Assembly (NCBI GenBank): GCA_003635305.1
Contig: PYJE01000068.1
Coordinates: forward strand, 21,882-68,170
DNA from: Candidatus Poribacteria bacterium
Lineage (GTDB): Bacteria; Poribacteria; WGA-4E; WGA-3G
DNA: 46,289 nt
Direction of reading: 5' to 3'
Both the position numbers and the translations under genes were made by a program. Below the pieces are notes generated by a model, which saw nothing but the letters and a program-made list of their open reading frames with translations, ran no database searches and was not told the origin of the DNA. Every line of letters begins with the position of its first letter. Positions within the stretch are counted from its first letter, which is position 1. Below, one piece after another: positions 8,551-23,698 of this stretch.

Positions 8551-10707
8551 ATGCACAGAAACTCTGATCGAACGCGTTGCGAAATACGAAATATTGGGAT
8601 TGCGGCGCACATCGATGCCGGCAAGACGACGACAACCGAACGGATTCTCTTCTATACCGGCAAAAAACATAAAATCGGCGCGGTTGATGACGGCACCGCC
8701 GAGATGGATTGGATGGTGCAGGAGCGCGAGCGCGGCGTAACTATCACCGCCGCTGCAACAACCTGCTTCTGGAAGGATTGCGCCATTCATCTCATTGATA
8801 CACCCGGGCACGTCGATTTTACCGTGGAGGTAGAACGTTCGCTGCGCGTGCTAGACGGTGCCATCGCGCTCTTCTGTGCTGTCGGCGGCGTGGAACCGCA
8901 GTCCGAAACAGTCTGGCATCAGGCGGAACGCTACGGTGTCCCGCGCATCGCATTCGTCAATAAGATGGATAGAATCGGCGCGAATTTCACGCGCACCATC
9001 GAGATGATGAAGGAACGCCTCGATGCAAATCCGCTGCCGCTTCAACTGCCCATCGGTGAGGGAAACGAATTCACCGGTATCATTGAGCTCCTCACACAAA
9101 AGGCACTCTATTGGAACACGGAAGATTTCGGGCAAACCTATCGTGAATCCGATATCCCATCTGAATTTCATGCCGAAGTCAGTCTCGCGCGGGAAACCCT
9201 CTTTGAAACCGTCGCCGCCGAAGATGACGCGCTCCTCGAAAAATATCTAGAAGGTGAAGAATTAACGCCTGCCGAATTGCTCCCTGTCATCCGCGAAGCA
9301 ACACTGAAGGGAACGTTAGTACCGGTGCTGTGCGGCAGCGCCTTAAAGAATACCGGCGTTCAACCGTTGTTGGATGCAGTCGTCAATTTTCTGCCATCGC
9401 CTGTCGACGTGCCCCCCATACAAGGGACAATACCCGATACCCCATCGCAAAAAAATAGCACCCAAAACGTAGTCATCAACAACGTTGATGACGGCCCTGG
9501 TAAGCCAACCGTCACATCACCGAAGATGCACGCCGAACGCATTGCGAACGACAAAGAACCCTTTTCAGCACTCGCCTTTAAAGTCGCCAGCCATCCCACC
9601 GTCGATAAATTAGTATATTGCCGCGTCTATTCCGGCACGCTCAAGCGCGGCGATGTCGTGCTGAACGTCGGCACCGAAAAACGGGAACGGGTGAATCGCA
9701 TTCTTCAGATGCACGCCAATAAAGAGGCGGTGTGCGATGCCGCCTACGCAGGCGACATCGTCGCGCTGGTTGGACTGAAACAGACGAAAACAGGGGATAC
9801 CTTGACAGCCCCGGAGCACCCTATCTTGCTCGCGCCCATCGATTTTCCACCCCCGGTCATCTCCATCGCCATTGAACCGGAACGCGCTAGCGATGCAGAC
9901 GCGTTGGAGGAAACCCTCCAAAAACTGATGGACGAAGATCCGACGTTTACCGTCGGTATTGACAAGGAAACCGGACAGCGCATCATTTCCGGGATGGGAG
10001 AACTCCACTTGGAAGTGCTTACGGATAGAATGATTCGCGAATTTGGCGTAAACGCACGGGTGAGCAAGTTGCAGGTGGCGTATCGTGAAACCATCGGCAC
10101 CTCGGCGGCGGCGCGCGGCACACATATCCATAAGACAGACGAAGAAGGCATCTATGGCGATGTCACCCTCAACGTTGAACCGCTAGCACGCGGCGAAGGA
10201 TTCCAATTTGCGGACAACACCGACGAAACGCAGATTCCACGTCCCTACATTCCATCTATCCAGAACGCGCTGCACCGCGCGATGGGGACAGGCGCGCTCA
10301 TCGGCTCACCCTTGCAGGATATCAAGGTGACGCTCACCGGCGGTTCCACGCACCCGACAGATGCATCGGAGATAGGGTATGAAGCCGCCGCCGTCCTCGC
10401 CTTTGAAAACGCAGTGAAAAAGGCGAACCCACTGCTCCTTGAACCGATGATGCAGATACATGTCACCGTGCCGGATGAACACGTCGGAAAGGTTATTGGC
10501 GAACTGAATAGCCGCCGCGCGCAAATTCATGAAAGCGGAAGCCCGCGCGAGAATGTCTCCTTTATCAACGCGCTCATTCCTCTGGCAGAAACGTTCCAGT
10601 ATACAACGTCGCTTCGTTCAATGACGCAAGGACGCGGCACGTTTACGTTGGAGTTTTCGCATTACGATGTAGTCCCAAAATCTTTGATGCCCGGGCATCG
10701 CGTTTAA
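8551..10707 (+). CDS. fusA: Elongation factor G (stand-alone paralog)
   Basis: '[15 protein letters not shown]', 'DTPGHVDF', 'NKMD', 'GMGELHLE', 'LLEPMM', 'LRSMTQGRG'; not flanked by rpsL/rpsG/tuf. Confidence 0.9.
9469..9504 (+). repeat. Family D REP-like element inserted in frame in fusA
   Basis: gtagtcatcaac-aac-gttgatgacggccctggtaag; near-identical to intergenic 31650-31685. Confidence 0.85.
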
Positions 10708-11849
10708 CGCCCATATTTCTCCATCACCTGTTGCAACCGGTCCAACGGCATCGCGAATATCGTTCTTCCATCGCGGCCGACAGTTGTCGTCGCCATCGTC
10801 ATGGAATTGACGACAGCCTCCTCTGTCGCCTCAATCGTTGCCTCAAAAAGCGCGCTGAGCCGCCAATTTTCCACCATACGAATCTGAAACGTGCCATTTT
10901 CCGTATCATCGGGAATCACATTCGCCGTGGAAAAGGCGATGACGAACTCGCCGCTGCCATCCGTGCTAGGCGTGCCGGTGCGTGCAAGTCCATGTGTGGC
11001 GCGCACCGCCACCTGCTTCAACTGGCGGTGCGTCAACGGCGCGTCCGTCGCGATAACGATGATGAACGAACCGTCTCTGCCGCGCTTCGCGCGAAAATCG
11101 GTGATTTCTTGCCCCACTGGCACGCCGTTAATCCGAAGTTGATGCCGACGGCCGCCGTTGGAATTGACGAGCACGCCGACTGTCCAACCGCCGCGTTCAG
11201 CAGGTAGCACCCGCGAGGCAGTGCCAATCCCGGCTTTGAAGCCGTAGCACCGCATCCCCGTGCCAGCCCCGACACATCCCTCCGCGACCGGGCCGACGGT
11301 AGCCCTCTCTATCGCTTGGATGGCGTGCTCCGCCGTTACATGGAGCCCATCAATGTCGTTCAAACCCCCATCGTAACACTCGGCGACGATTGGCAGAACG
11401 ATGTTGTTATCGGGATACCGCTTCACGATATACCGGACAACGCCATCGTGGACAGGGCCGACGCTCAACGTATTCGTCAACAAGATAGGCGATTCAATCC
11501 AGCCAGCTTGGTTTATCCTTGCAATACCAGTTGCTTCGCCGTTGCCGTGGATGACATGCGCCGCGCCAAACAGCCGCGCCTCCCATATATCATCGCGCGG
11601 CACGATAGCGGTGACACCGGTGCGGATGGACTCGCCTTCATTCAGCGTGACATGTCCTACCTTCACGCCTTGCACATCGGTGATAGCGTTGTGTTCTCCC
11701 GATGGAAAGAGCCCTATCTGAATGCCGAGTTCACGGGCGCGGGCGCGAGGCATCTCTGTCTCTTGAGAGACTGCAGGAGATGTCGCGAATAAGATTGCGA
11801 AAAAGAGTGATAGCGCGAAAACGAGAAAATTGCGGGGTGTTGTGTTCAT
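10704..11849 (-). CDS. P1/S58 family (DmpA-like) aminopeptidase, secreted
   Basis: 'NAITDV.GVKVGH', 'TGVTAI', 'VGAGTGM...FK.GIGTASR', autoprocessing 'DG|[12 protein letters not shown]'; signal peptide. Confidence 0.9.
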
Positions 11850-12373
11850 ACCAGTTGCTCCCGATAGATGGCGCGGATGTGATTAAAGAGCTCAATATAC
11901 GTTTGCGAGCGGTAATCCGGATATGTCCACGCCCACGGTTGGAACGTTTTGCGATGGAAACGGAGTGTAATTTCGGCATAGATACCCTCACCGAGATAAA
12001 TGCGATGCGCGTGGTCCTTCGTGGAAGCGAGGACTAACTTCGCCGAGTCAACATACCCGGCATCTAAATTGACGCGCCGACAGTGTGTCCCTTCGCGCGC
12101 AAACGTCTCTTCCACTTGGTTCGTGAACCCCTTCATCGCTGCCAAAGCACCAGCATCCATCAGCCGCTCAAAACTGATGAATTGCCGTTGCAGATTCTCC
12201 CCCATCTCCGCCGCGTAGTAGGTAGTGCTGGTGAAGGGCAACAGCGCGCTCTGCCAGTCAACCGGCCCGAGGCGGCGTGTTAACCTCTGATAAACAGACG
12301 ACAGCAGCAGCGGCTCCGCCGTCAACACACCGATAATAGGTTTGACCGGGAGTGGTGCCCGAATTGTGCCCAT
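11846..12373 (-). CDS. DUF4416 family protein
   Basis: 'F..T.YY..EMG', 'RRVNLDAGY', 'LASTK...HRIYL..GIYAE.TL', 'WTYPDY'. Confidence 0.85.
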   Translation of the reverse strand: MGTIRAPLPVKPIIGVLTAEPLLLSSVYQRLTRRLGPVDWQSALLPFTSTTYYAAEMGENLQRQFISFERLMDAGALAAMKGFTNQVEETFAREGTHCRRVNLDAGYVDSAKLVLASTKDHAHRIYLGEGIYAEITLRFHRKTFQPWAWTYPDYRSQTYIELFNHIRAIYREQLV

Positions 12374-12481
12374 TTCTGTCTCCTCCGCGATAATTTGCAC
12401 CGAATTCCTCATAAATGATACCATTTTTTTTCGTTAAAAATCAAAAATGTCCTATTTTCAACCGAATTTTGTAAAAAAATC

Positions 12482-12541: not shown

Positions 12542-12712
12542 TTTACGTTATGCGATGCTTGCATGAATTAAGACAGAAACCGACAAGTTTTTTGTCACCA
12601 GAAATTGTTGTTTGTTTTCGGCCCGTTTAGAAACACGCTAAAAAATCACTACGCCTCTCTGGCAAATGTCTGTGCCCGCACCTCGCGCGCGCCAGACAGG
12701 AGAAGAACCTAC

Positions 12713-15700
12713 GTGAAGAAACGCATATCTTTCGCCAAAACAGACGTTCGCACACCCCTACCGAATTTGATTGAGACGCAGCAGCGCGCTTACGATGCCT
12801 TTTTGCAGCGCGACACGTTTCCGCACAAGGACAGCGGCCTGGCGGCAGTCTTCAACGAAGTCTTCCCTATCGCTGACTTCAACGAAGTCTCGCGCCTTGA
12901 ATTCGTCCATTACCAACTCGGCGAACCGAAATATACCCTTGACGAATGCCTCGCCCGCGGGGTTACCTACCAGGTCTCCCTCACCGCGCGGCTCCGCCTC
13001 GTCGTCTGTGAGAAAAACGCAGAAGACGAAGAACCGCACGTCGTTGATATCCGCGAGTCCGAAGTCTATTTCGGCGAAGTACCGCTGATGACTGAAAACG
13101 CCAGCTTCATCATCAACGGCAGCGAACGCGTCATCGTTAACCAATTGCACCGCTCACCCGGTGTCATCTTCCTCAATAAAACGCTCCCAGGCGGACATCG
13201 CTCCCCCACGGCGCAAATCATTCCTTACCGCGGGGCATGGATAGAATTCGAGGCGGACTCTAAAGATACCCTTTCCGTCCGGTTAAACAAACGTCGCAAG
13301 ATACCCGCCACCGTCCTGCTCCGCGCACTCGGGTGGGAGACGGATGCCGACATCTTGAAACTGTTCGCCGAACCAACGCGCGTGATGCTCTCCGGGTGGC
13401 GCGTCACTGAAGTAGCACTACCCGAATGTCCAACCCAAATCGATGCACTCTTAACCGCGGCGGAACATCGAAAGTTGGATGCCGACTACCCCGGCGCGGT
13501 AGCTGAGCTTTTCTATGAAGTCGTCTCCGCGTCCGATGATGCAACGTGCCCTGTCGCCGTCGGCGACAGGCTCACGCCTAACGAGTGGGCAAGGCACCGC
13601 AAAACGTGGAAAGATACCACCTTTGCACGCATCTGGCGTATCGCCAAGCATTACCGCCCCGACTATCCTTACCCCATCGGCGACATCGTGGCCGATGCAA
13701 CCTATCAGAAGGCACGGAAGGATTACCCGGGGATTGAGATAGAACCGTGCTATCGCGTCACAGCTGTCACTGACAAAGGGTGTCCGCTGGAAGAAGGACA
13801 GATGCTGACATCCAAGGAGCGCACCCGCGCACGCCGGAAGTGGAGAGGATTCACGACAGAACGACTCCTGCGCGTCACGAAACTCCTCAATACCGGATGC
13901 CCCTTGAACGTCGGCCAGCACCTCACGCCTACCGAATACACCGAAATGCTCGGAAAGCATCCTGACGCTTTCAAGGCAGAACGGATTGAATCGACAGACA
14001 TCGCCGAAACTATCGGCAGCGTCTGCGCTGAACCTATCGCCGACCCGAGGACTGACGAACTGCTAGTGACAGCGAATACGCTACTCACCGAAACAGAAGT
14101 CGAACGGCTGAGGGGTGCCGGTGTGGAGATGCTCACGGTGTTGACACCCGAATCCGCCAAAGCTCTCCGTTTTTTACGCAATACCCTCGAACGCGACAAA
14201 GAATCGGACTACGAGGCCCGCATCCAGGCCACCGGACGGCAAAGCGAAACACCCATTCAAGATGTCGCCCTGCTCAATATCCACTCTGTCCTCAGACCGG
14301 GGGAACCGGTGAGTATTGAGGCGGCGCACCGGCAACTCGCTTGGCACTTCTTCGACGCGCACCGCTATGACTTGGGGACTGTGGGACGCTACAAAGTGAA
14401 CTCAAAACTGCGACACCTCTCCGTATACGGTGAGCCGCCCGATGAGAAACACCGAACGTTGCGCCCGGAGGACATCGCGGCGACACTCCGGCACCTGCTT
14501 GATGTCCATAACGATCCTTCGTTGATAGACGACTTGGACCATCTCAGTAACCGTCGTGTACGCGGTATCGGCGAATTATTGGAGAACCAGTTCCGCATCG
14601 GCCTATTCCAGATCCGGCGCGCCACGCGCGAACGCATCTCCTCCGCCGATATGAGCAACTGCATGCCGCCAATGCTGATTAACCCGAAGCCGCTCATGGT
14701 TTCACTCCGCGAGTTCTTCGGTTCAAACCAACTCTCGCAGTTCATGCAGCAGGTAAATCCGCTCGATGAATTGACGCACAAGCGGCGTATCTCTGCCATC
14801 GGCCCCGGCGGACTCTCGCGCGATAGAGCCACCGCCGCCGTTCGCGATGTGCATCACACACACTACGGACGCGTCTGTCCCTTGGAGACACCGGAAGGCC
14901 CTTCTATTGGCCTCCTCGTATCGCTGGCGTGTTATGCGCGTATCAATCCTTACGGGTTCATTGAGACTCCTTATCACAGAGTGGTGCCCGGCAAGTCGAT
15001 GGCTGATATGGAAATTGAATACCTCACCGCCGATAAGGAAGACAAGGCCCGCATCGCCGCCAAAACGATACCGCGCGACGCGAAAAGGGGAGAAACGCCT
15101 GACACGGGCATCCAGCTGCCCGCCCGAAAAGGCGAAGATGTGCTTGCCTTACCCCTGTCCGAGGTAGACTACGTCGGCATCTCGCCATCACAGATTGTCG
15201 GTGTTTCCGCAGCACTCGTGCCTTTTTTAGAACATGAAGACGCGAACCGCGCCCTCATGGGCGCGAACCATCAACGACAAGCAGTGCCGCTCATCAAGCC
15301 CGAAGCACCACTCGTCGGCACCGGCATGGAAGCACGCGTCGCCCGGGACTCAGGGGCACTGTGCATCGCCAAACGCAGCGGCACCGTCGAAAGCGTCTCC
15401 GCCGCGGACATCATCATCCATACCGATGAACCCCTGCACGCAGACATCGGCGAACAACACAAGAGTGAGATGGGCTACGACCGGTATGAACTCCACACTT
15501 TCAAGCGGAGCAACAGCGGCACCTGCATCCATCAGCGGCCCATCGTCTCCGTCGGCGACACAGTGGAAGCAGGCGACATCATCGCCGACGGCACTTCTAC
15601 CGATGAAGGCGAACTCGCGCTCGGCAGGAACGTCCTGTGCGCCTATATGCCGTGGGGCGGACACAACTATGAGGACTCCATACTCATCAGCGAAAGCCTT

Positions 15701-17260
15701 GTCCAAGACGACACTTTCAGTTCCATTCATATCGAGGAATTCGAGGTGGAAGCCCGCGAAACGAAAATGGGACCGGAGGAAATTACGCGCGATATTCCCG
15801 ATGCAAGCCAACAGCGACTCTCACAACTGGACGAAGAAGGAATCATCCGTGTCGGAAGCCTTGTCAGCGCAGGCAGCATCCTCGTCGGTAAGATTTCACC
15901 CAAAGGCGAAAGTGAATACGGACCGGAGGAGAAACTCCTGCACGTTATCTTCGGTGAAAAGGTGCGCGAAGTCCGAGACGCATCCACATACGTCAAACCC
16001 GGCATTGAAGGCATCGTGATTGATGTCAAAGTCTTCTCACGAAAACAGGAACCAAGCCGGCACTCGCTGCAAAGCCTCGTTGACGCAGACCAGCTCCGTT
16101 ACGATGCCAAGAAGAAGGCCATCGAGGAGAAGTTCCACGAACACCTCCTGGCCATCCGCCGCCGCCGAGACGAAGAAATTCGGAACGCGCTCATCGGATG
16201 CGAATTGGCACAGCCACTCTTCAGAGGTATCGACACCGAAGCACCCCTTTCGCGCACAAGCAATGCCGAAGAACTGGACGAGTTGGACCATATCGGGGAA
16301 CTGCTGGCAGAAAGCGGCGACATCGTGACGCACGAACTCCTGCACACACCCGGCCTTGTGCTCAACGAGATTCACGTCACCGCCTCAAACGTCATGGCAT
16401 ACATCCAACGCGTTCAGGAAATCGCCGAGGAGCGCATCGCCGCCTATACCGAAGAAAAATCAAGCCAGCTCGAACAGATGGAACTCGGGGACGAACTCAA
16501 ATCCGGCGTGCTTAAACTGGTGAAAGTCTATATCGCGACGACGCGCCACATCTCCATCGGCGATAAAATGGCAGGCCGCTACGGCAACAAAGGGGTGGTA
16601 GCAGAAATTTTGCCCAAAGAGGATATGCCCTATCTCCCCGATGGAACACCGGTGGATATCGTGCTGAACCCCCTCGGCGTGCCATCACGGATGAACGTCG
16701 GGCAAATCCTTGAAATTCACCTCGGCTGGGCATGCCACGCACTGGGCATCCATGTTGAATCGCCTGTCTTTGACGGCGCAACCGAAAAGGAAATCTTCAC
16801 GATGCTCGACAAAACCGGCTTGCCGGAACGCAGCAAGAAAACCGGGAAAAGCATCCTTTACGACGGCAGAACCGGAGAAGCGTTCGGACAGGAAGTCACC
16901 GTGGGATATGTCTACTTCCTCAAACTGAACCATCTCGTCGCCGACAAGATGCACGCCCGTTCTACCGGGCCCTACTCGCTTGTTACGCAGCAGCCGTTGG
17001 GCGGCAAGGCGCAACATGGCGGACAGCGGCTCGGCGAAATGGAGGTGTGGGCATTAGAGGCATACGGTGCCGCGCATACCTTACAAGAAATGCTCACGCT
17101 CAAATCCGACGATTTCATGGGCAGAGCCAAAATTTATGAGTCGATGGTGAAAGGGCTCAACCCCGAATCCCCCGGCACACCGGAGTCGTTCAACGTTCTC
17201 GTGCGCGAATTGCAGGGCCTCGGCCTCAGCGTTTCCTTGAATCCGCCTGAAGAAAAATAG
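12713..17260 (+). CDS. rpoB: DNA-directed RNA polymerase subunit beta, with repeat-array insertion
   Basis: '[19 protein letters not shown]', 'CPLETPEGP', 'NRALMGAN', '[14 protein letters not shown]', 'HARSTGPYS', '[17 protein letters not shown]'; GTG start after AGGAG. Confidence 0.97.
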   Translation: [1515 protein letters not shown]

Positions 17261-17428: not shown

Positions 17429-20400
17429 ATGGCAACCCCATTTGACAGTATCTCCCTCAAAATCGCTTCGCCGGACGAAATCAAAGCGTTGGCGAAGCGC
17501 ACCTGCTGCAAACGCAGAAGCAGCACCGTCAACCCCGGTGAACCCTTCTCCTGCCCAGAAATGCACACCTGCAACTGCGGCGAAGTGAAGAAGGCAGAGA
17601 CGATTAACTACCGCTCCTTCCGGCCCGAACTCGAAGGCCTCTTCTGTGAGGCAATTTTCGGGCCTTCCAAGGACTGGGAGTGTAACTGCGGAAAATATAA
17701 GCGGATTAAGCACAAAGGCGTTATCTGCGACCGGTGCGGCGTGGAAGTCACACGCCAGCACGTCCGCAGGGAACGGATGGGCTACATCCAACTCGCGTCC
17801 CCTGTCTCGCATATCTGGTTCTTCAAGGGGGCCCCATCGCGCATCGGAGCCTTCTGTGACTTCTCCGCACGGCAGATTGAGAACATTCTCTACTTTGACG
17901 CGTTCCTGGTGACTGAAGCGGACGAGGAACTTCAAGCACAAGGTATCCTCAAGCCCAACCAACTCATCAGCGAGGCAGAATTCGATACCTACAAAGTCCA
18001 ATACCGAGGCCGATTTAAGGCAGGTGCCGGCGGCGAAATACTTGCCAAACACCTCGCGAGCTTGGACCTCGAGGCAGAATGCGAGCAACTCGCTAAGGAA
18101 CTAGAGGAAACGCGCAGCCATCAGAAAAAGGTGAAACTCGCCAAGCAGCTCCGCATGAGGGAAGACTTTCTGAGGTCTGGACAACGTCCCGAATGGATGA
18201 TCATCGATGTGCTTCCCGTAATTCCCCCGGATTTGCGGCCCCTCGTCACCTTAGATGGCGGACGATTCGCCACCAGCGATCTGAACGATTTGTATCGGCG
18301 GCTCATCCATCGAAACAACCGCCTAGCCAAACTCATCCAGATGCGCTCGCCCGAAGTCATCTTGCGCAACGAAAAACGGATGCTGCAAGAAGCCGTTGAC
18401 GCATTCTTTGATAACGGCCGACACGGCAGAAGCGTAACAGGACCCGGGAATCGCGAACTCAAATCGCTCTCGCACGTCCTCAAAGGGAAAGTCGGACGCT
18501 TCCGACAGAATCTGCTCGGCAAACGGGTCGACTACTCCGGCCGCAGCGTCATCGTCGTCGGACCTGAACTAGCACTACACCAATGCGGCATCCCGAAACA
18601 GATGGCAGTGGAGTTGTTCAAGCCATTTATTATCGAACGGCTGCAAGCCTATGGCTACTCCAGCACCATCAAGCGCGCCAAGTCTTATGTCGAGAATATC
18701 GATTCTGGTAGCCCAGTGTGGGACGTGCTCGAAGAAGTCATCGAAGAACACCCAGTGTTGCTCAACCGGCCACCGACACTGCACCGGCTCGGCATTCAAG
18801 CATTCATGCCGGTCTTGGTGGAAGGAAAATCTATCCGAATCCCACCACTTGTCTGCAAAGCGTTCAACGCCGATTTTGATGGAGACCAGATGGCAGTGCA
18901 TGTGCCGTTAACCGCCGAAGCTCAGGCAGAAGCGAAACTGCTGATGCTCAGCAGCCATAACATCTTGAAGCCTTCGCACGGCGGACCGATTGCCGTCCCC
19001 GAACTGGATATGGTGCTCGGACCGAGTTACCTTACCAAGACGCTACCAGAACACGATGCGGACGCGCAACTGCTTCACAAGGTCTATACCCATCAAAACA
19101 GCGATACCTCTCTCTTTGATGAGATTCGCAGGAAACCGTGGTATCACCGCCGCTACGCGCATCCGGAAGAAGTCATCGCCGCGCACGGTGCAGGGCAACT
19201 CAAACTACACGACAGCGTCCAGTTGTTTTTCCCGGAAAATGGCAGGCAGCGCGAACCAATCCTCACCACCGTTGGCCGAGTGATTTTTAACGAGGTCCTC
19301 CCAGCCGAATTGGACTGGGAGGACGAGCACTCCGGACAGCAACTCCCGTTTTTCAACGGCGAAGCAGGGGGGAGGCAGCTCTCTGAAATCGTTGAAGACT
19401 GTTTCAACACTCCCGACCTCGGCACGCGGGCGACTGTAGAACTGCTGCAGCGACTTCAAAAACTCGCGTTCGAGTATGCAACGCAAAGCGGGATTTCGCC
19501 CAGCATTAATGATTACATCAAACCGCCGCAGCGGCAGGAACTGTTGGAAAAGACAGAGGAAACTATTGCCGAACTCATCGCCGCATCCGCCGCAGGTGCC
19601 GATACCGAAGAACTGGAGAACGAGCAAATCCACCTATGGTTCCAAGCACTGCGAGAGATGGAAGGCCTCATGTTTGCTAGACTCCCAGAATTGGAAACCC
19701 GCCTCGTTGACAGGGACGAACATGTCAAAGGGTTCAGTCCGGTGCATATCATGGCAGATAGCGGCGCACGGGCCCGGAAAAATCCGTTCATGCAAATCAG
19801 TGCCGTCCTCGGGCTGAAAGCGAAGCAGAGCGGTGAAATTCTGCTGCCGCCGATTACCACCTCCTATCGCGACGGATTGGACGTAATCGACTACTTCAAC
19901 TCCACCTACGGCTCCCGAAAAGGATTGGTGGATACGGCGATGAAGACAGCGGCATCGGGTTACTTGACGCGGAAACTCGTTGATGTCGCGCAAGACGTGC
20001 GCGTCACTGAAACGGATTGCGGCACCCTCCACGGCATCAAGAAATTTGCCACTGAAGGAGGAGAACTCGCTTTTAAAATCCGCGGACGCACCGCGACAGA
20101 GGATATCCTACATCCCAATACCGGTGAAGTCCTCGTCAAAGCCGATGAACTCATCTCAGCCGAAGCAGCGGCACTGCTTGAAAAGAGTAAGGTAAAAATT
20201 GTCACCGTCCGTTCGATGCTCACCTGCGAGACCGAGGAAGGTGTCTGCGCCAAATGCTACGGACACGATTTGACGACGAACAGGCTTGTCAGTGTCGGTG
20301 AAGCTGTTGGCATTATCGCCGCGCAATCCATCGGGGAACCCGGTACGCAACTCACGATGCGGACGTTCCACACCGGTGGTGCGGTTGAGGAAGTCTCCGA

Positions 20401-23400
20401 TGCACGCCAGCGTAAAATCCTAGCAAAAACGAGTGGCACTGTGAGGTTCCGCGATTTCCATCCCGGCATCACTGTCCGCCAAGAAGGCGCTCTCTGGATA
20501 TCCACAGGGCCCGGCACTTCTCCAATCGGCACAACTTCCTGGGCCGATAATCAGGCTGCTCTGAGGCGGGATCCAATAAACACGGAATCCGCTGAAAAGA
20601 AAGAATTCGGCAGCCGGGCCAATCTGGACGCTCCCGCCTACAAGGTCACGCGCGTCATTCACGCCGATTGCAAATTACAAAAAGGCGACTTGCTGAGCGA
20701 GAAACAGTTCTCTGAAAACGCGCAGCGTTACAAAGGCTTTGAGACAGTCCCATGGCAGCATCGCGTCACCACCGTTCACGATGATGCCTGTCCCTTGAAA
20801 GAGGGAGACCGGCTTTCTGCCGCGCAGTTGCATCAAGCCAGAAGGGCATACGGCTTCACGCGCTTTGCAACCGAGAAGCGCGAGATAGAACACGTCCGCC
20901 TTTCTACTGTGAACGTTCACCCCGGCGATTTGCTCACCGAAGAAGAAATCGCGCAGCGCAAAGCAGAGATTCGGAACAAATTTGATGGCGAATGGTGTTA
21001 CCGCATCCCAAAAACCGGCGAAATTTTCAAGTCGGCTCAGGAATTGTTGCCCTTGGGCATCCCTGTGGAGCCCCTTGAAGATATTGCGGATACAGCAATG
21101 CCAGGAGACACGTCTGCTGAAATGGCGGAAGCCCTGACTTCTGCGGATACATCGCTAGCGGGACGCACGTCTTTTGAACGGGTTTACCGCATCACCGCGC
21201 GGACACATCGGGATTTCCCTTATGCTGTCGGGGATATCGTGACCGCGGAGGAGATTGCGCCGTGGTTCACGCCTTTTGAGGAGGCAAAGAACCCCGTCTA
21301 TGTCATTGATGCAGACGCACCCTTGCATGCAGGCGAGACGTTGACACGCTACCAATACGAGGAAGTGTGTCGCGATTATCAGCCGTTTGAATCCGAAAGA
21401 GCGTCGGAAGTGTTGCACCACGTTACGGCAGTGCATCATCCCAGCTGCCCACTCAAGCCGGGTGAAGATTTAACCACAGCGGACAAGGATGCGATGCTCG
21501 CTCGCTGGATGGGTTTTGAAGCGCAGAAACTGCGGCACCGGGTTACGCACATCTATCATCCGGATTTTCCATACAAACCGGGCTATTTGATGAGCGATGC
21601 AGAGGCCAAAAAGTGGGCAAGCGAATTCCCCGGCATTGAAGTCCGGCATTCCGGCGTGTTTAGAACAACCCCTATCAATCGCATCACCGCCGTTCATTTC
21701 CCAGACAGCCCCTTGCAGAAGGGTGAACTGATGACGCGCAGCGAGGCATCGACATACCGCAAGACGTTCAAAGGGTTGGATGTCGAATCCTTCTACGAGG
21801 TTACTGAAGGACACTACTATCGGGCAACCGAAGGCAAGCCAGGCTTCACTGCAGAAGCGTTAACAGGGCCCGCTTTTACCGGGAAGGGTTCCAAGAACGT
21901 CTGGCGCGTTACCGAAGTGTTCCATCCCGCGTGCAAACTTGAGGTTGGACAGGATATTTCCAACGCCGCTTACAAGAAAGCGCAAAAGGACTTTCCAAGC
22001 GTCAAGCCGGGCGATATCCTAACGCAGGCGGAATTGGAAACGTGGCACCCCTTAGCCGCTGAGCAGGTCCAGCAACTCACCGAAGCGGAGTATGAGGCAC
22101 GACGCAAATGGGAGGCGAAAAACAAAACGCGGGGTAAAACGGATCTGAAAATCCAAGAGAAGGTCACACCCCAACACCGCGTGCTGGATGTCCATCACCC
22201 CCAACTCGCCATTGAAATCGGCGAAGAACTGGCGGATAAGGACTACAAGAAGCTCAAGCAAAAATACAGAGGGTTTGACGTTGAAACCCTCCATGGTGTC
22301 ATCCTAGATGAACCAGAGCTGGAGGAGCCCGACATCCCAGAAAGTGAGCTCGCTCAAGCGAAGCCGGACTCCACTGTGGTAGAGCACTATAAGCACGTCG
22401 TCAACAATCTAGAACTTCCTGTAGCGCAGTGGGAAAAGCCGCGCCTCGAGAAATTCTGGCGCGTTAAGGCTGTTCTTCCCAATCTAGAGTGTGAGTTTTC
22501 GGTAGGACAGAATCTTTCTGAAACCGAATATCAGGAGGCCTGCAAGAAGTATCAGGTCCACCTCGAAAAACCGAAGAGGCGTTTTCCCATTGATAAGGCA
22601 GAAATCTTTACAGCGGATGAATACCGCGCCCGCTGGAAGTATACCGTCACGGCTGTCCATCATCCGAATTGTCCGTATGAGGTAGGGACAGAATTATCCG
22701 AATCGGAATACCAAAGCGCGCTCAAGCATTACCCCGGCTTTGATAGGGACGATCCGGCACTGCAGATGAACATTGAGGTAGAGACAGCCGATGGCCGTCG
22801 GGTGCCGCATCAGATCAAGGCAGATTACTCCTTCTCCATCAAGGAGGGCGATACCGTCAAAGAGGAAGAAACCCTCGCTGAACTCCACGAGAAGACAGCG
22901 AACAGGGATATCGTTGCAGGTATCCCTCGCGTGACAGATCTTTTTGAGGCGCGCCAGCCTAAACGCGAAGACGCAGCGGAAATCGCGGAAATCGAAGGAT
23001 ACATTGAATCGGCAGGATCCAAATCAGGTGTTCCGACATACCGCATCGTTCACGAGGGGCACGAAAGCCGCCTCTACGCCATTCCGGACGAAAAACGGCG
23101 CGTCACCGAAGGCGACTTGGTAGAAGCAGGACAGCCGCTCACGGATGGATACCTCAACCCGCACGATATCCTCAAAATCGGGCGCGTCTTCATTGAAGAT
23201 GTCCCAATTGAAGGCGCAGAGGCCATTTGGACATACCTCATTGAGGAAATCCAAAAGGTTTACGGCGCACGCGCCATCAACGACAAGCACCTCGAAGCCA
23301 TCGTCCGGCAAATGATGAGGAAGGTGCGAGTGCTGAAACCCGGCGATACGCAGTTCCCCCATAACAGTGAGGTGACGCGACAGAAATTCGCTGAGGTGAA

Positions 23401-23698
23401 CGCGAAGGTTATTGACAGCGGCGGTGAACCTGCCACCGGCGAACCGATTCTGCAAGGCATCAGCCGTGCATCGCTCAGCACAGAAAGTTTCATCTCTGCC
23501 GCCTCGTTCCAGCAGACGACGAAGGTGCTGACAGATGCCGCTGTCAAAGGGCAGACAGACAAACTCTCCGGGCTGAAGGAAAACGTCATCCTCGGTCGCC
23601 TCATCCCTGCAGGAAGTGGACTTCCGGATTTACAGCAACTGGAAATCACGGAGGTTGACACTGACGAAGAGATGGAGGCACCGGAACCCGCCGAGTAA
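17429..23698 (+). CDS. rpoC: DNA-directed RNA polymerase subunit beta' (2089 aa; giant trigger-loop insertion)
   Basis: Zn ribbon 'CNCGKY...CDRCGVEV', 'GKRVDYSGRSVI', catalytic 'NADFDGD', 'GEPGTQLTMRTFHTGG', 'GLKENVILGRLIPAG'. Confidence 0.97.
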   Translation: MATPFDSISLKIASPDEIKALAKRTCCKRRSSTVNPGEPFSCPEMHTCNCGEVKKAETINYRSFRPELEGLFCEAIFGPSKDWECNCGKYKRIKHKGVICDRCGVEVTRQHVRRERMGYIQLASPVSHIWFFKGAPSRIGAFCDFSARQIENILYFDAFLVTEADEELQAQGILKPNQLISEAEFDTYKVQYRGRFKAGAGGEILAKHLASLDLEAECEQLAKELEETRSHQKKVKLAKQLRMREDFLRSGQRPEWMIIDVLPVIPPDLRPLVTLDGGRFATSDLNDLYRRLIHRNNRLAKLIQMRSPEVILRNEKRMLQEAVDAFFDNGRHGRSVTGPGNRELKSLSHVLKGKVGRFRQNLLGKRVDYSGRSVIVVGPELALHQCGIPKQMAVELFKPFIIERLQAYGYSSTIKRAKSYVENIDSGSPVWDVLEEVIEEHPVLLNRPPTLHRLGIQAFMPVLVEGKSIRIPPLVCKAFNADFDGDQMAVHVPLTAEAQAEAKLLMLSSHNILKPSHGGPIAVPELDMVLGPSYLTKTLPEHDADAQLLHKVYTHQNSDTSLFDEIRRKPWYHRRYAHPEEVIAAHGAGQLKLHDSVQLFFPENGRQREPILTTVGRVIFNEVLPAELDWEDEHSGQQLPFFNGEAGGRQLSEIVEDCFNTPDLGTRATVELLQRLQKLAFEYATQSGISPSINDYIKPPQRQELLEKTEETIAELIAASAAGADTEELENEQIHLWFQALREMEGLMFARLPELETRLVDRDEHVKGFSPVHIMADSGARARKNPFMQISAVLGLKAKQSGEILLPPITTSYRDGLDVIDYFNSTYGSRKGLVDTAMKTAASGYLTRKLVDVAQDVRVTETDCGTLHGIKKFATEGGELAFKIRGRTATEDILHPNTGEVLVKADELISAEAAALLEKSKVKIVTVRSMLTCETEEGVCAKCYGHDLTTNRLVSVGEAVGIIAAQSIGEPGTQLTMRTFHTGGAVEEVSDARQRKILAKTSGTVRFRDFHPGITVRQEGALWISTGPGTSPIGTTSWADNQAALRRDPINTESAEKKEFGSRANLDAPAYKVTRVIHADCKLQKGDLLSEKQFSENAQRYKGFETVPWQHRVTTVHDDACPLKEGDRLSAAQLHQARRAYGFTRFATEKREIEHVRLSTVNVHPGDLLTEEEIAQRKAEIRNKFDGEWCYRIPKTGEIFKSAQELLPLGIPVEPLEDIADTAMPGDTSAEMAEALTSADTSLAGRTSFERVYRITARTHRDFPYAVGDIVTAEEIAPWFTPFEEAKNPVYVIDADAPLHAGETLTRYQYEEVCRDYQPFESERASEVLHHVTAVHHPSCPLKPGEDLTTADKDAMLARWMGFEAQKLRHRVTHIYHPDFPYKPGYLMSDAEAKKWASEFPGIEVRHSGVFRTTPINRITAVHFPDSPLQKGELMTRSEASTYRKTFKGLDVESFYEVTEGHYYRATEGKPGFTAEALTGPAFTGKGSKNVWRVTEVFHPACKLEVGQDISNAAYKKAQKDFPSVKPGDILTQAELETWHPLAAEQVQQLTEAEYEARRKWEAKNKTRGKTDLKIQEKVTPQHRVLDVHHPQLAIEIGEELADKDYKKLKQKYRGFDVETLHGVILDEPELEEPDIPESELAQAKPDSTVVEHYKHVVNNLELPVAQWEKPRLEKFWRVKAVLPNLECEFSVGQNLSETEYQEACKKYQVHLEKPKRRFPIDKAEIFTADEYRARWKYTVTAVHHPNCPYEVGTELSESEYQSALKHYPGFDRDDPALQMNIEVETADGRRVPHQIKADYSFSIKEGDTVKEEETLAELHEKTANRDIVAGIPRVTDLFEARQPKREDAAEIAEIEGYIESAGSKSGVPTYRIVHEGHESRLYAIPDEKRRVTEGDLVEAGQPLTDGYLNPHDILKIGRVFIEDVPIEGAEAIWTYLIEEIQKVYGARAINDKHLEAIVRQMMRKVRVLKPGDTQFPHNSEVTRQKFAEVNAKVIDSGGEPATGEPILQGISRASLSTESFISAASFQQTTKVLTDAAVKGQTDKLSGLKENVILGRLIPAGSGLPDLQQLEITEVDTDEEMEAPEPAE

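Follow-up and report, generated by a model that had tools for sequence, protein, structure and literature searches.

In Taq RNA polymerase, Asp396, which corresponds to Asp516 in E. coli numbering, bonds the C21 hydroxyl of rifampicin together with His406 (PMC6963833). The consequences of altering this pocket were described for E. coli by Yang et al. (2023), who made all single substitutions at positions 510-537 and 563-572 (PMC10550828). According to that source nearly every substitution at 516, 526 or 572 gives high-level resistance, a statement made for the positions and not for Gln in particular, and mutations in the helix shared by Ser522 and His526 likewise lead to high-level resistance. 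Many of the resistant substitutions are not seen in nature because more than one nucleotide change is needed (PMC10550828).

Pocket substitutions also occur as fixed features of natural lineages. Bolourchi et al. (2025) surveyed 18,127 species and predicted intrinsic rifamycin resistance for 8% of them, with the cases grouped by clade (PMC12337354). High-rank clades with a fixed substitution include the Spirochaetia (531N) and the Mollicutes and Erysipelotrichales (526N) (PMC12337354, PMC10550828). The rifamycin producer Amycolatopsis rifamycinica carries 522D, a resistance substitution from the panel of 57 mutations used in the survey, together with 531N (PMC12337354), and the producer rpoB of Amycolatopsis adjoins the rif gene cluster (PMC7283461, PMC6804068). 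A different arrangement is found in Nocardia, Nonomuraea and Actinomadura, where rpoB2 or rpoB(R) combines several resistance-position changes in one RpoB (PMC12337354). Known resistance residues can also be phenotypically silent, as described for 518D in Francisella and 526N in Bifidobacterium, and residues of the pocket may evolve neutrally or under other pressures (PMC12337354).

The gene compared here with these systems comes from a Candidatus Poribacteria MAG, in which it is the sole rpoB and has a housekeeping role. It lies in a stretch of 46,289 nucleotides, below called the window, whose relevant features are collected in Table 1. All six bacterial Rpb2 Pfam domains were detected in the translation of the 4.6 kb open reading frame, and a search against the PDB returned RpoB chains with E values down to 2e-99, the best being cyanobacterial enzymes. 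The true start is probably a GTG near 12713, some 36 codons downstream of the TTG, which would give a product of about 1515 aa. This placement follows from the length of the nearest homologues found in the protein search (1509-1521 aa) and from the alignment to E. coli RpoB, in which the window protein has an N-terminal excess of 30 aa. Positions 12605-12712 are thus likely an over-extension to the TTG by the ORF finder. Across the phylum the length of RpoB ranges from about 1309 to 2224 aa.

Table 1. Position of rpoB, rpoC and the sequence elements discussed in the text; coordinates are those of the window and residue numbers those of E. coli RpoB unless stated otherwise.
Feature	Coordinates	Strand	Basis or detail
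rpoB, RNA polymerase beta subunit	12605..17260	+	ORF from TTG, 1551 aa
Beta-lobe insertion, four motif copies	13514..13951	+	RpoB aa 304-449, after E. coli residues ~262-293
Rif cluster I (505-537)	14714..14812	+	S509N, D516Q, N518V, S522D, I524L, L533I
D516Q	14747..14749	+	CAG, Gln; E. coli alignment; in other bacteria residue 516 forms a hydrogen bond with rifampicin
S522D	14765..14767	+	GAT, Asp; E. coli alignment
S531, wild-type	14792-14794	+	TCT; E. coli alignment
L533I	14798-14800	+	E. coli alignment
Fork-loop-2 tetrad (543-546)	14828..14839	+	ATAA vs AGFE in E. coli; G544T/F545A/E546A at 14831-14839
Rif cluster II (563-574)	14888..14923	+	N568S, I572L, N573V
N568S	14903-14905	+	E. coli alignment
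I572L	14915-14917	+	E. coli alignment
rpoC, beta-prime subunit	17429..23698	+	2089 aa; ORF list, translation, Pfam domains
Beta-prime insertion, ~13 motif copies	20639..22738	+	RpoC aa 1071-1770, between trigger-loop halves, E. coli SI3 position

The surroundings of the gene differ from those in Amycolatopsis. An intact rpoC follows directly, and the other neighbours include an HtrA-like protease, a dehydrogenase, EF-G, an S58 peptidase, a DUF4416 protein, a DNA methylase and a fumarase. All ten flanking ORFs that were scanned are housekeeping or unrelated genes; among them there is no antibiotic biosynthetic cluster, in particular no ansamycin cluster linked to rpoB, and no resistance island. 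The genes for the S58 peptidase and the DUF4416 protein are located upstream on the minus strand (10704-12424), the DNA methylase gene is downstream of rpoC, and rplJ-rplL do not precede rpoB as they do in E. coli. A search of the genome, which is 87% complete, for the rifampin ADP-ribosyltransferase Arr (PF12120) gave no match, and an independent sign of rifamycin exposure is therefore missing.

It should be considered whether the contig is mis-assembled or chimeric, or whether the gene is a second, resistant paralogue like rpoB2 of Nocardia. The genome is a MAG of 213 contigs with 4% contamination, as would suit such an artefact. It nevertheless gave a single rpoB match, as did each of the long-read, single-contig relatives (one full match each), whereas the organisms with rpoB2 keep a second, sensitive copy (PMC12337354). 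Moreover, rpoC and the flanking housekeeping genes are intact, and 158 genomes from independent assemblies, among them many single-contig chromosomes, show the same pocket. An artefact is accordingly highly improbable.

The pocket itself is encoded by positions 14714-14923, in frame with the rpoB ORF, where they form codons 704-773 and correspond to E. coli RpoB residues 505-574; the translation of this segment closes with TPEGPSIGLLVS and is identical to the one given in the first-pass annotation. Residue numbers were taken from E. coli RpoB in the annotated record NC_011601.1, aligned to the window protein. The first-pass annotation of the window had listed D516Q, S522D, L533I, N568S and I572L, and all five are correct by this alignment. 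S509N, N518V, I524L, N573V and the triple change G544T/F545A/E546A come in addition, so at least nine changes coexist in the pocket region. The contact or resistance positions V146, Q513, F514, H526, R529, S531, P564 and R687 are the same as in E. coli, and with Q513, F514, H526, R529, S531 and P564 conserved the canonical architecture of the rifampicin pocket is present.

The changes exceed what chance would give. Few segments are better conserved across bacteria: when the best 150 representatives from a search of 1.84 billion proteins were inspected, 131 of the 136 that could be parsed retained Asp516. The five other representatives, which we infer to be poribacterial, all have Asp522, combined with Gln516 in four cases and Ala516 in one. 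Asp516 was also found in each of the 15 parsed loci, out of 16, that carry non-poribacterial record titles. A search for close homologues of the pocket was saturated by poribacterial proteins and is therefore silent on other phyla. The record at the head of its list, a 1071-aa RpoB (P0003), contains the rifampicin region twice, at positions 381 and 545, both times with Asp516. It ranked first because two copies were scored, and the duplication probably arose in assembly or gene calling. Another record is titled 'uncultured Actinomycetes bacterium', and in 401 sampled genomes of its phylum neither QFMQQxNP nor NPxDGxTHKRR was found. These two scans indicate rarity only, because the sample evidently missed the rifamycin producers. 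Gln516 is thus rare outside the Poribacteria.

Within the Poribacteria the situation is reversed. The survey covered 176 genomes of the GTDB phylum, with a readable pocket in 167. Position 516 is Gln in 161 of these, Ser in five and Ala in one, and never Asp (0/167), while Asp522 is present in all 167. The combination of a residue other than Asp at 516 with Asp522 extends over all ten GTDB families in which the pocket could be read, other classes included. The motif QFMQQxNPxDE matched 158 of the 176 genomes and 125 of the 133 of high quality; a reversed control gave no matches. Nine of the 18 genomes that lack the exact motif carry variants: Q516/D522/A523 (n=2), Q516/D522 with V514/I515 (n=1), A516/D522 (n=1) and S516/D522/V525/T531/G568 (n=5). 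The other nine lacked a genuine match to the RpoB pocket, the search giving nothing or a weak hit (E ~1e-6 to 1e-7) without the pocket motif; the completeness of the genomes without a readable pocket is 61-96%.

The variants include two side cases. The deep-branching family f8 (loci L114, L116, L117, L122, L123; genomes G051, G052, G053, G054, G050) combines S516 and D522 with T525V, S531T and N568G, and its pocket is more divergent still, with LILYLS at 571-576 and the classic site 531 itself altered. The rpoB open frame of L115 (genome G057, family f9) extends over 2224 aa, and its pocket carries F514V, M515I and A532D.

Other substitutions have a narrower distribution. A comparison of 41 relatives, which represent 4 families and 13 genera, yielded 30 loci, and every one of these (30/30) has Q516, D522 and S568, with I533 seen in the window's family f1 only and L572 confined to the three loci of the window's genus. 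Likewise, all 119 parsed clusters of close proteins have Q516, D522, S531, I533 and S568, and four have L572. The motif instances, among which some loci duplicate a genome, use CAA 65 times and CAG 31 times at position 516, and GAT 71 times and GAC 25 times at 522. Both synonymous codons are thus in use at each site, so that Gln516 and Asp522 have been maintained through silent turnover.

These distributions bear on the proposal in the first-pass annotation that co-resident actinomycetes producing rifamycins selected for the residues in sponge symbionts. Rifamycin-producing Salinispora occur in sponges. The titled relatives of the window are sponge or coral MAGs and 522D is common to the window RpoB and a rifamycin producer (PMC12337354), both in line with such selection. 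For the core of the trait, however, this origin is improbable. Its presence in all ten readable families means that it predates the split of the phylum and is not confined to a sponge lineage, and the phylum includes the free-living Pelagiporibacteria (PMC8546597). Judged at the level of the phylum rather than genome by genome, free-living relatives would therefore share the residues, which weakens the niche explanation. The pocket trait would then be ancestral to the phylum and not a response to sponge life. I533 and L572, at resistance positions and of more recent origin, could reflect later local selection, and of all the substitutions only these younger ones might still have a link with the sponge-associated family and genus.

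The residues suggest a possible way in which the pocket would lose affinity for the drug. With Gln in place of Asp516 the carboxylate that bonds rifampicin in other bacteria is lost, and the Asp in place of Ser522 belongs to the helix along the drug. To this core, Ile533 is added in family f1 and Leu572 in the window's genus. Weaker binding of rifamycins and, through it, an intrinsic, target-based insensitivity would be the most likely consequence. Since Gln can still form a hydrogen bond, the effect of the change at 516 may be incomplete. We consider it fairly probable that the RNA polymerase encoded in the window has an anciently fixed insensitivity of this kind. The reduction in drug binding that it implies is deduced from the residues and their positions.

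Several comparisons agree with this. The window RpoB has a listed resistance substitution (522D), a change at a drug contact (D516Q) and fixation throughout a clade, and by the criterion of Bolourchi et al. it would count as intrinsically resistant (PMC12337354). The resistance positions named in the first-pass annotation are borne out at 516, 522 and 572 by the E. coli mutants, in which they fall into high-resistance classes (PMC10550828); those mutants are single changes in E. coli, whereas the window RpoB combines its changes in a distant background. Asp→Gln and Ser→Asp each require two nucleotide changes from common codons and so belong with the substitutions that lie beyond a single step. 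The fixed substitutions of the Spirochaetia, Mollicutes and Erysipelotrichales are likewise out of reach of one nucleotide change, and the Poribacteria further share with these clades a pocket that is otherwise conserved. They differ from these clades in that positions 516 and 522 are affected instead of 526 or 531, and in that the case here is known from sequence. The likeness to the Amycolatopsis producers (A. rifamycinica, A. mediterranei) lies in Asp522 and in resistance of the target rather than by an enzyme (PMC12337354). The first-pass annotation had placed Gln516 and Asp522 among the self-resistance residues of the producer A. mediterranei. For Asp522 this is confirmed in A. rifamycinica (PMC12337354); the residue at 516 of an Amycolatopsis producer is not named in the literature searched.

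Other observations argue against insensitivity. Ser531 and His526, the two commonest sites of natural resistance, are wild-type in the window RpoB, and 531N, which accompanies 522D in the producer, is absent. The E. coli statement reads 'nearly every' and not 'every' substitution at 516, and the silent residues of other bacteria mentioned above show that a resistance residue need not have an effect (PMC12337354). The earlier claim of intrinsic rifamycin resistance stands as likely insofar as it rests on changes at resistance positions, but it does not extend to the full producer pattern.

Neither the Poribacteria nor 516Q appears in the main text of PMC12337354, and a search for S522D together with rpoB found no literature. 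The sole apparent D516Q was a deletion in which Asp516-Gln517 is replaced by Glu, and was rejected. None of the listed papers joining Poribacteria with rifampicin names either in its title or abstract, and in one of them both are mentioned incidentally; supplementary data may list these genomes. No rifamycin assay on Poribacteria was found in the literature searched.

A serious rival is that the residues have no connection with a drug. In this scenario they drifted, or were selected for polymerase kinetics such as speed, pausing, termination and nucleotide economy, possibly co-evolving with other lineage-specific features of the enzyme, and insensitivity would be absent or a by-product. Pocket substitutions do alter the speed of transcription in E. 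coli: the natural variant 524L acts like a fast polymerase, and 572L, in the manner of slow or stringent enzymes, makes cells resistant to bicyclomycin and 5-fluorouracil (PMC10550828). Both residues are present in the window RpoB, and evolution of the pocket under neutral or other pressures is admitted for such residues (PMC12337354).

The enzyme is also unusual in other respects, which is consistent with a kinetic origin. One of them is the altered fork-loop tetrad. Residues 543-546 of fork loop 2 are reportedly the streptolydigin-resistance tetrad of Heisler et al. (1993), and the window enzyme may also differ in its sensitivity to streptolydigin. T544 is present in each family read apart from f9, whose one genome (L115) has Pro, and A545/A546 were seen in family f1 only.

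A second peculiarity is the great size of the insertions in the two subunits. Both beta and beta-prime have in common a core motif of ~32 aa, recovered with an iterated HMM, with the consensus h-R-V-T-x-V-h-h-P-x-C-P-L-x-x-G-D-x-L-t-x-x-E-Y. In the 87%-complete genome no other ORF of at least 60 aa contains it. A scan of 37 rpoB loci found copies in beta in 13, which belong to genera g1, g3, g4 and g5 of family f1. AlphaFold models the four beta copies with confidence (mean pLDDT 87.6). When the repeat model was compared with the PDB, Foldseek returned nothing at E ≤ 0.001, and with VIA-align against 48,161 chains the best Z was 3.8, no clear relative emerging. The repeat unit may be a module of the BBM2/BEAN type. 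Lineage-specific insertion modules of RNA polymerase are already known (PMC11515920, PMC2939025).

What speaks against a purely kinetic or neutral origin is that two independent, documented resistance positions are both fixed, each two nucleotide changes away, and that 522D recurs in a producer (PMC12337354). Such an origin, which we hold to be rather unlikely, would moreover be compatible with resistance as a consequence. Ancient, target-based insensitivity is for these reasons the explanation that we prefer.

The Poribacteria would have kept, since the origin of the phylum, a rifamycin/sorangicin pocket with a producer-like Asp522 and no Asp516. If this was the work of selection by inhibitors, they could represent a lineage with a multiply drug-hardened polymerase, in which I533, L572 and the fork-loop changes are younger layers; we find this unlikely, but if it is true, rifamycins could serve to select for or enrich the so far uncultured poribacterial symbionts. 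The finding is a new example, at the level of a clade, of a known phenomenon and leaves the knowledge of the rifamycin mechanism unchanged. The natural Q516/D522 background provides a test case for the transfer of resistance predictions between distant polymerases. If the enzyme is insensitive, the Poribacteria would be a further high-rank clade, beside the spirochaetes and mollicutes, that tolerates rifamycins inherently. The pair of positions involved, 516 and 522, would differ from those of the other clades, and one of the two changes recurs in a rifamycin producer.
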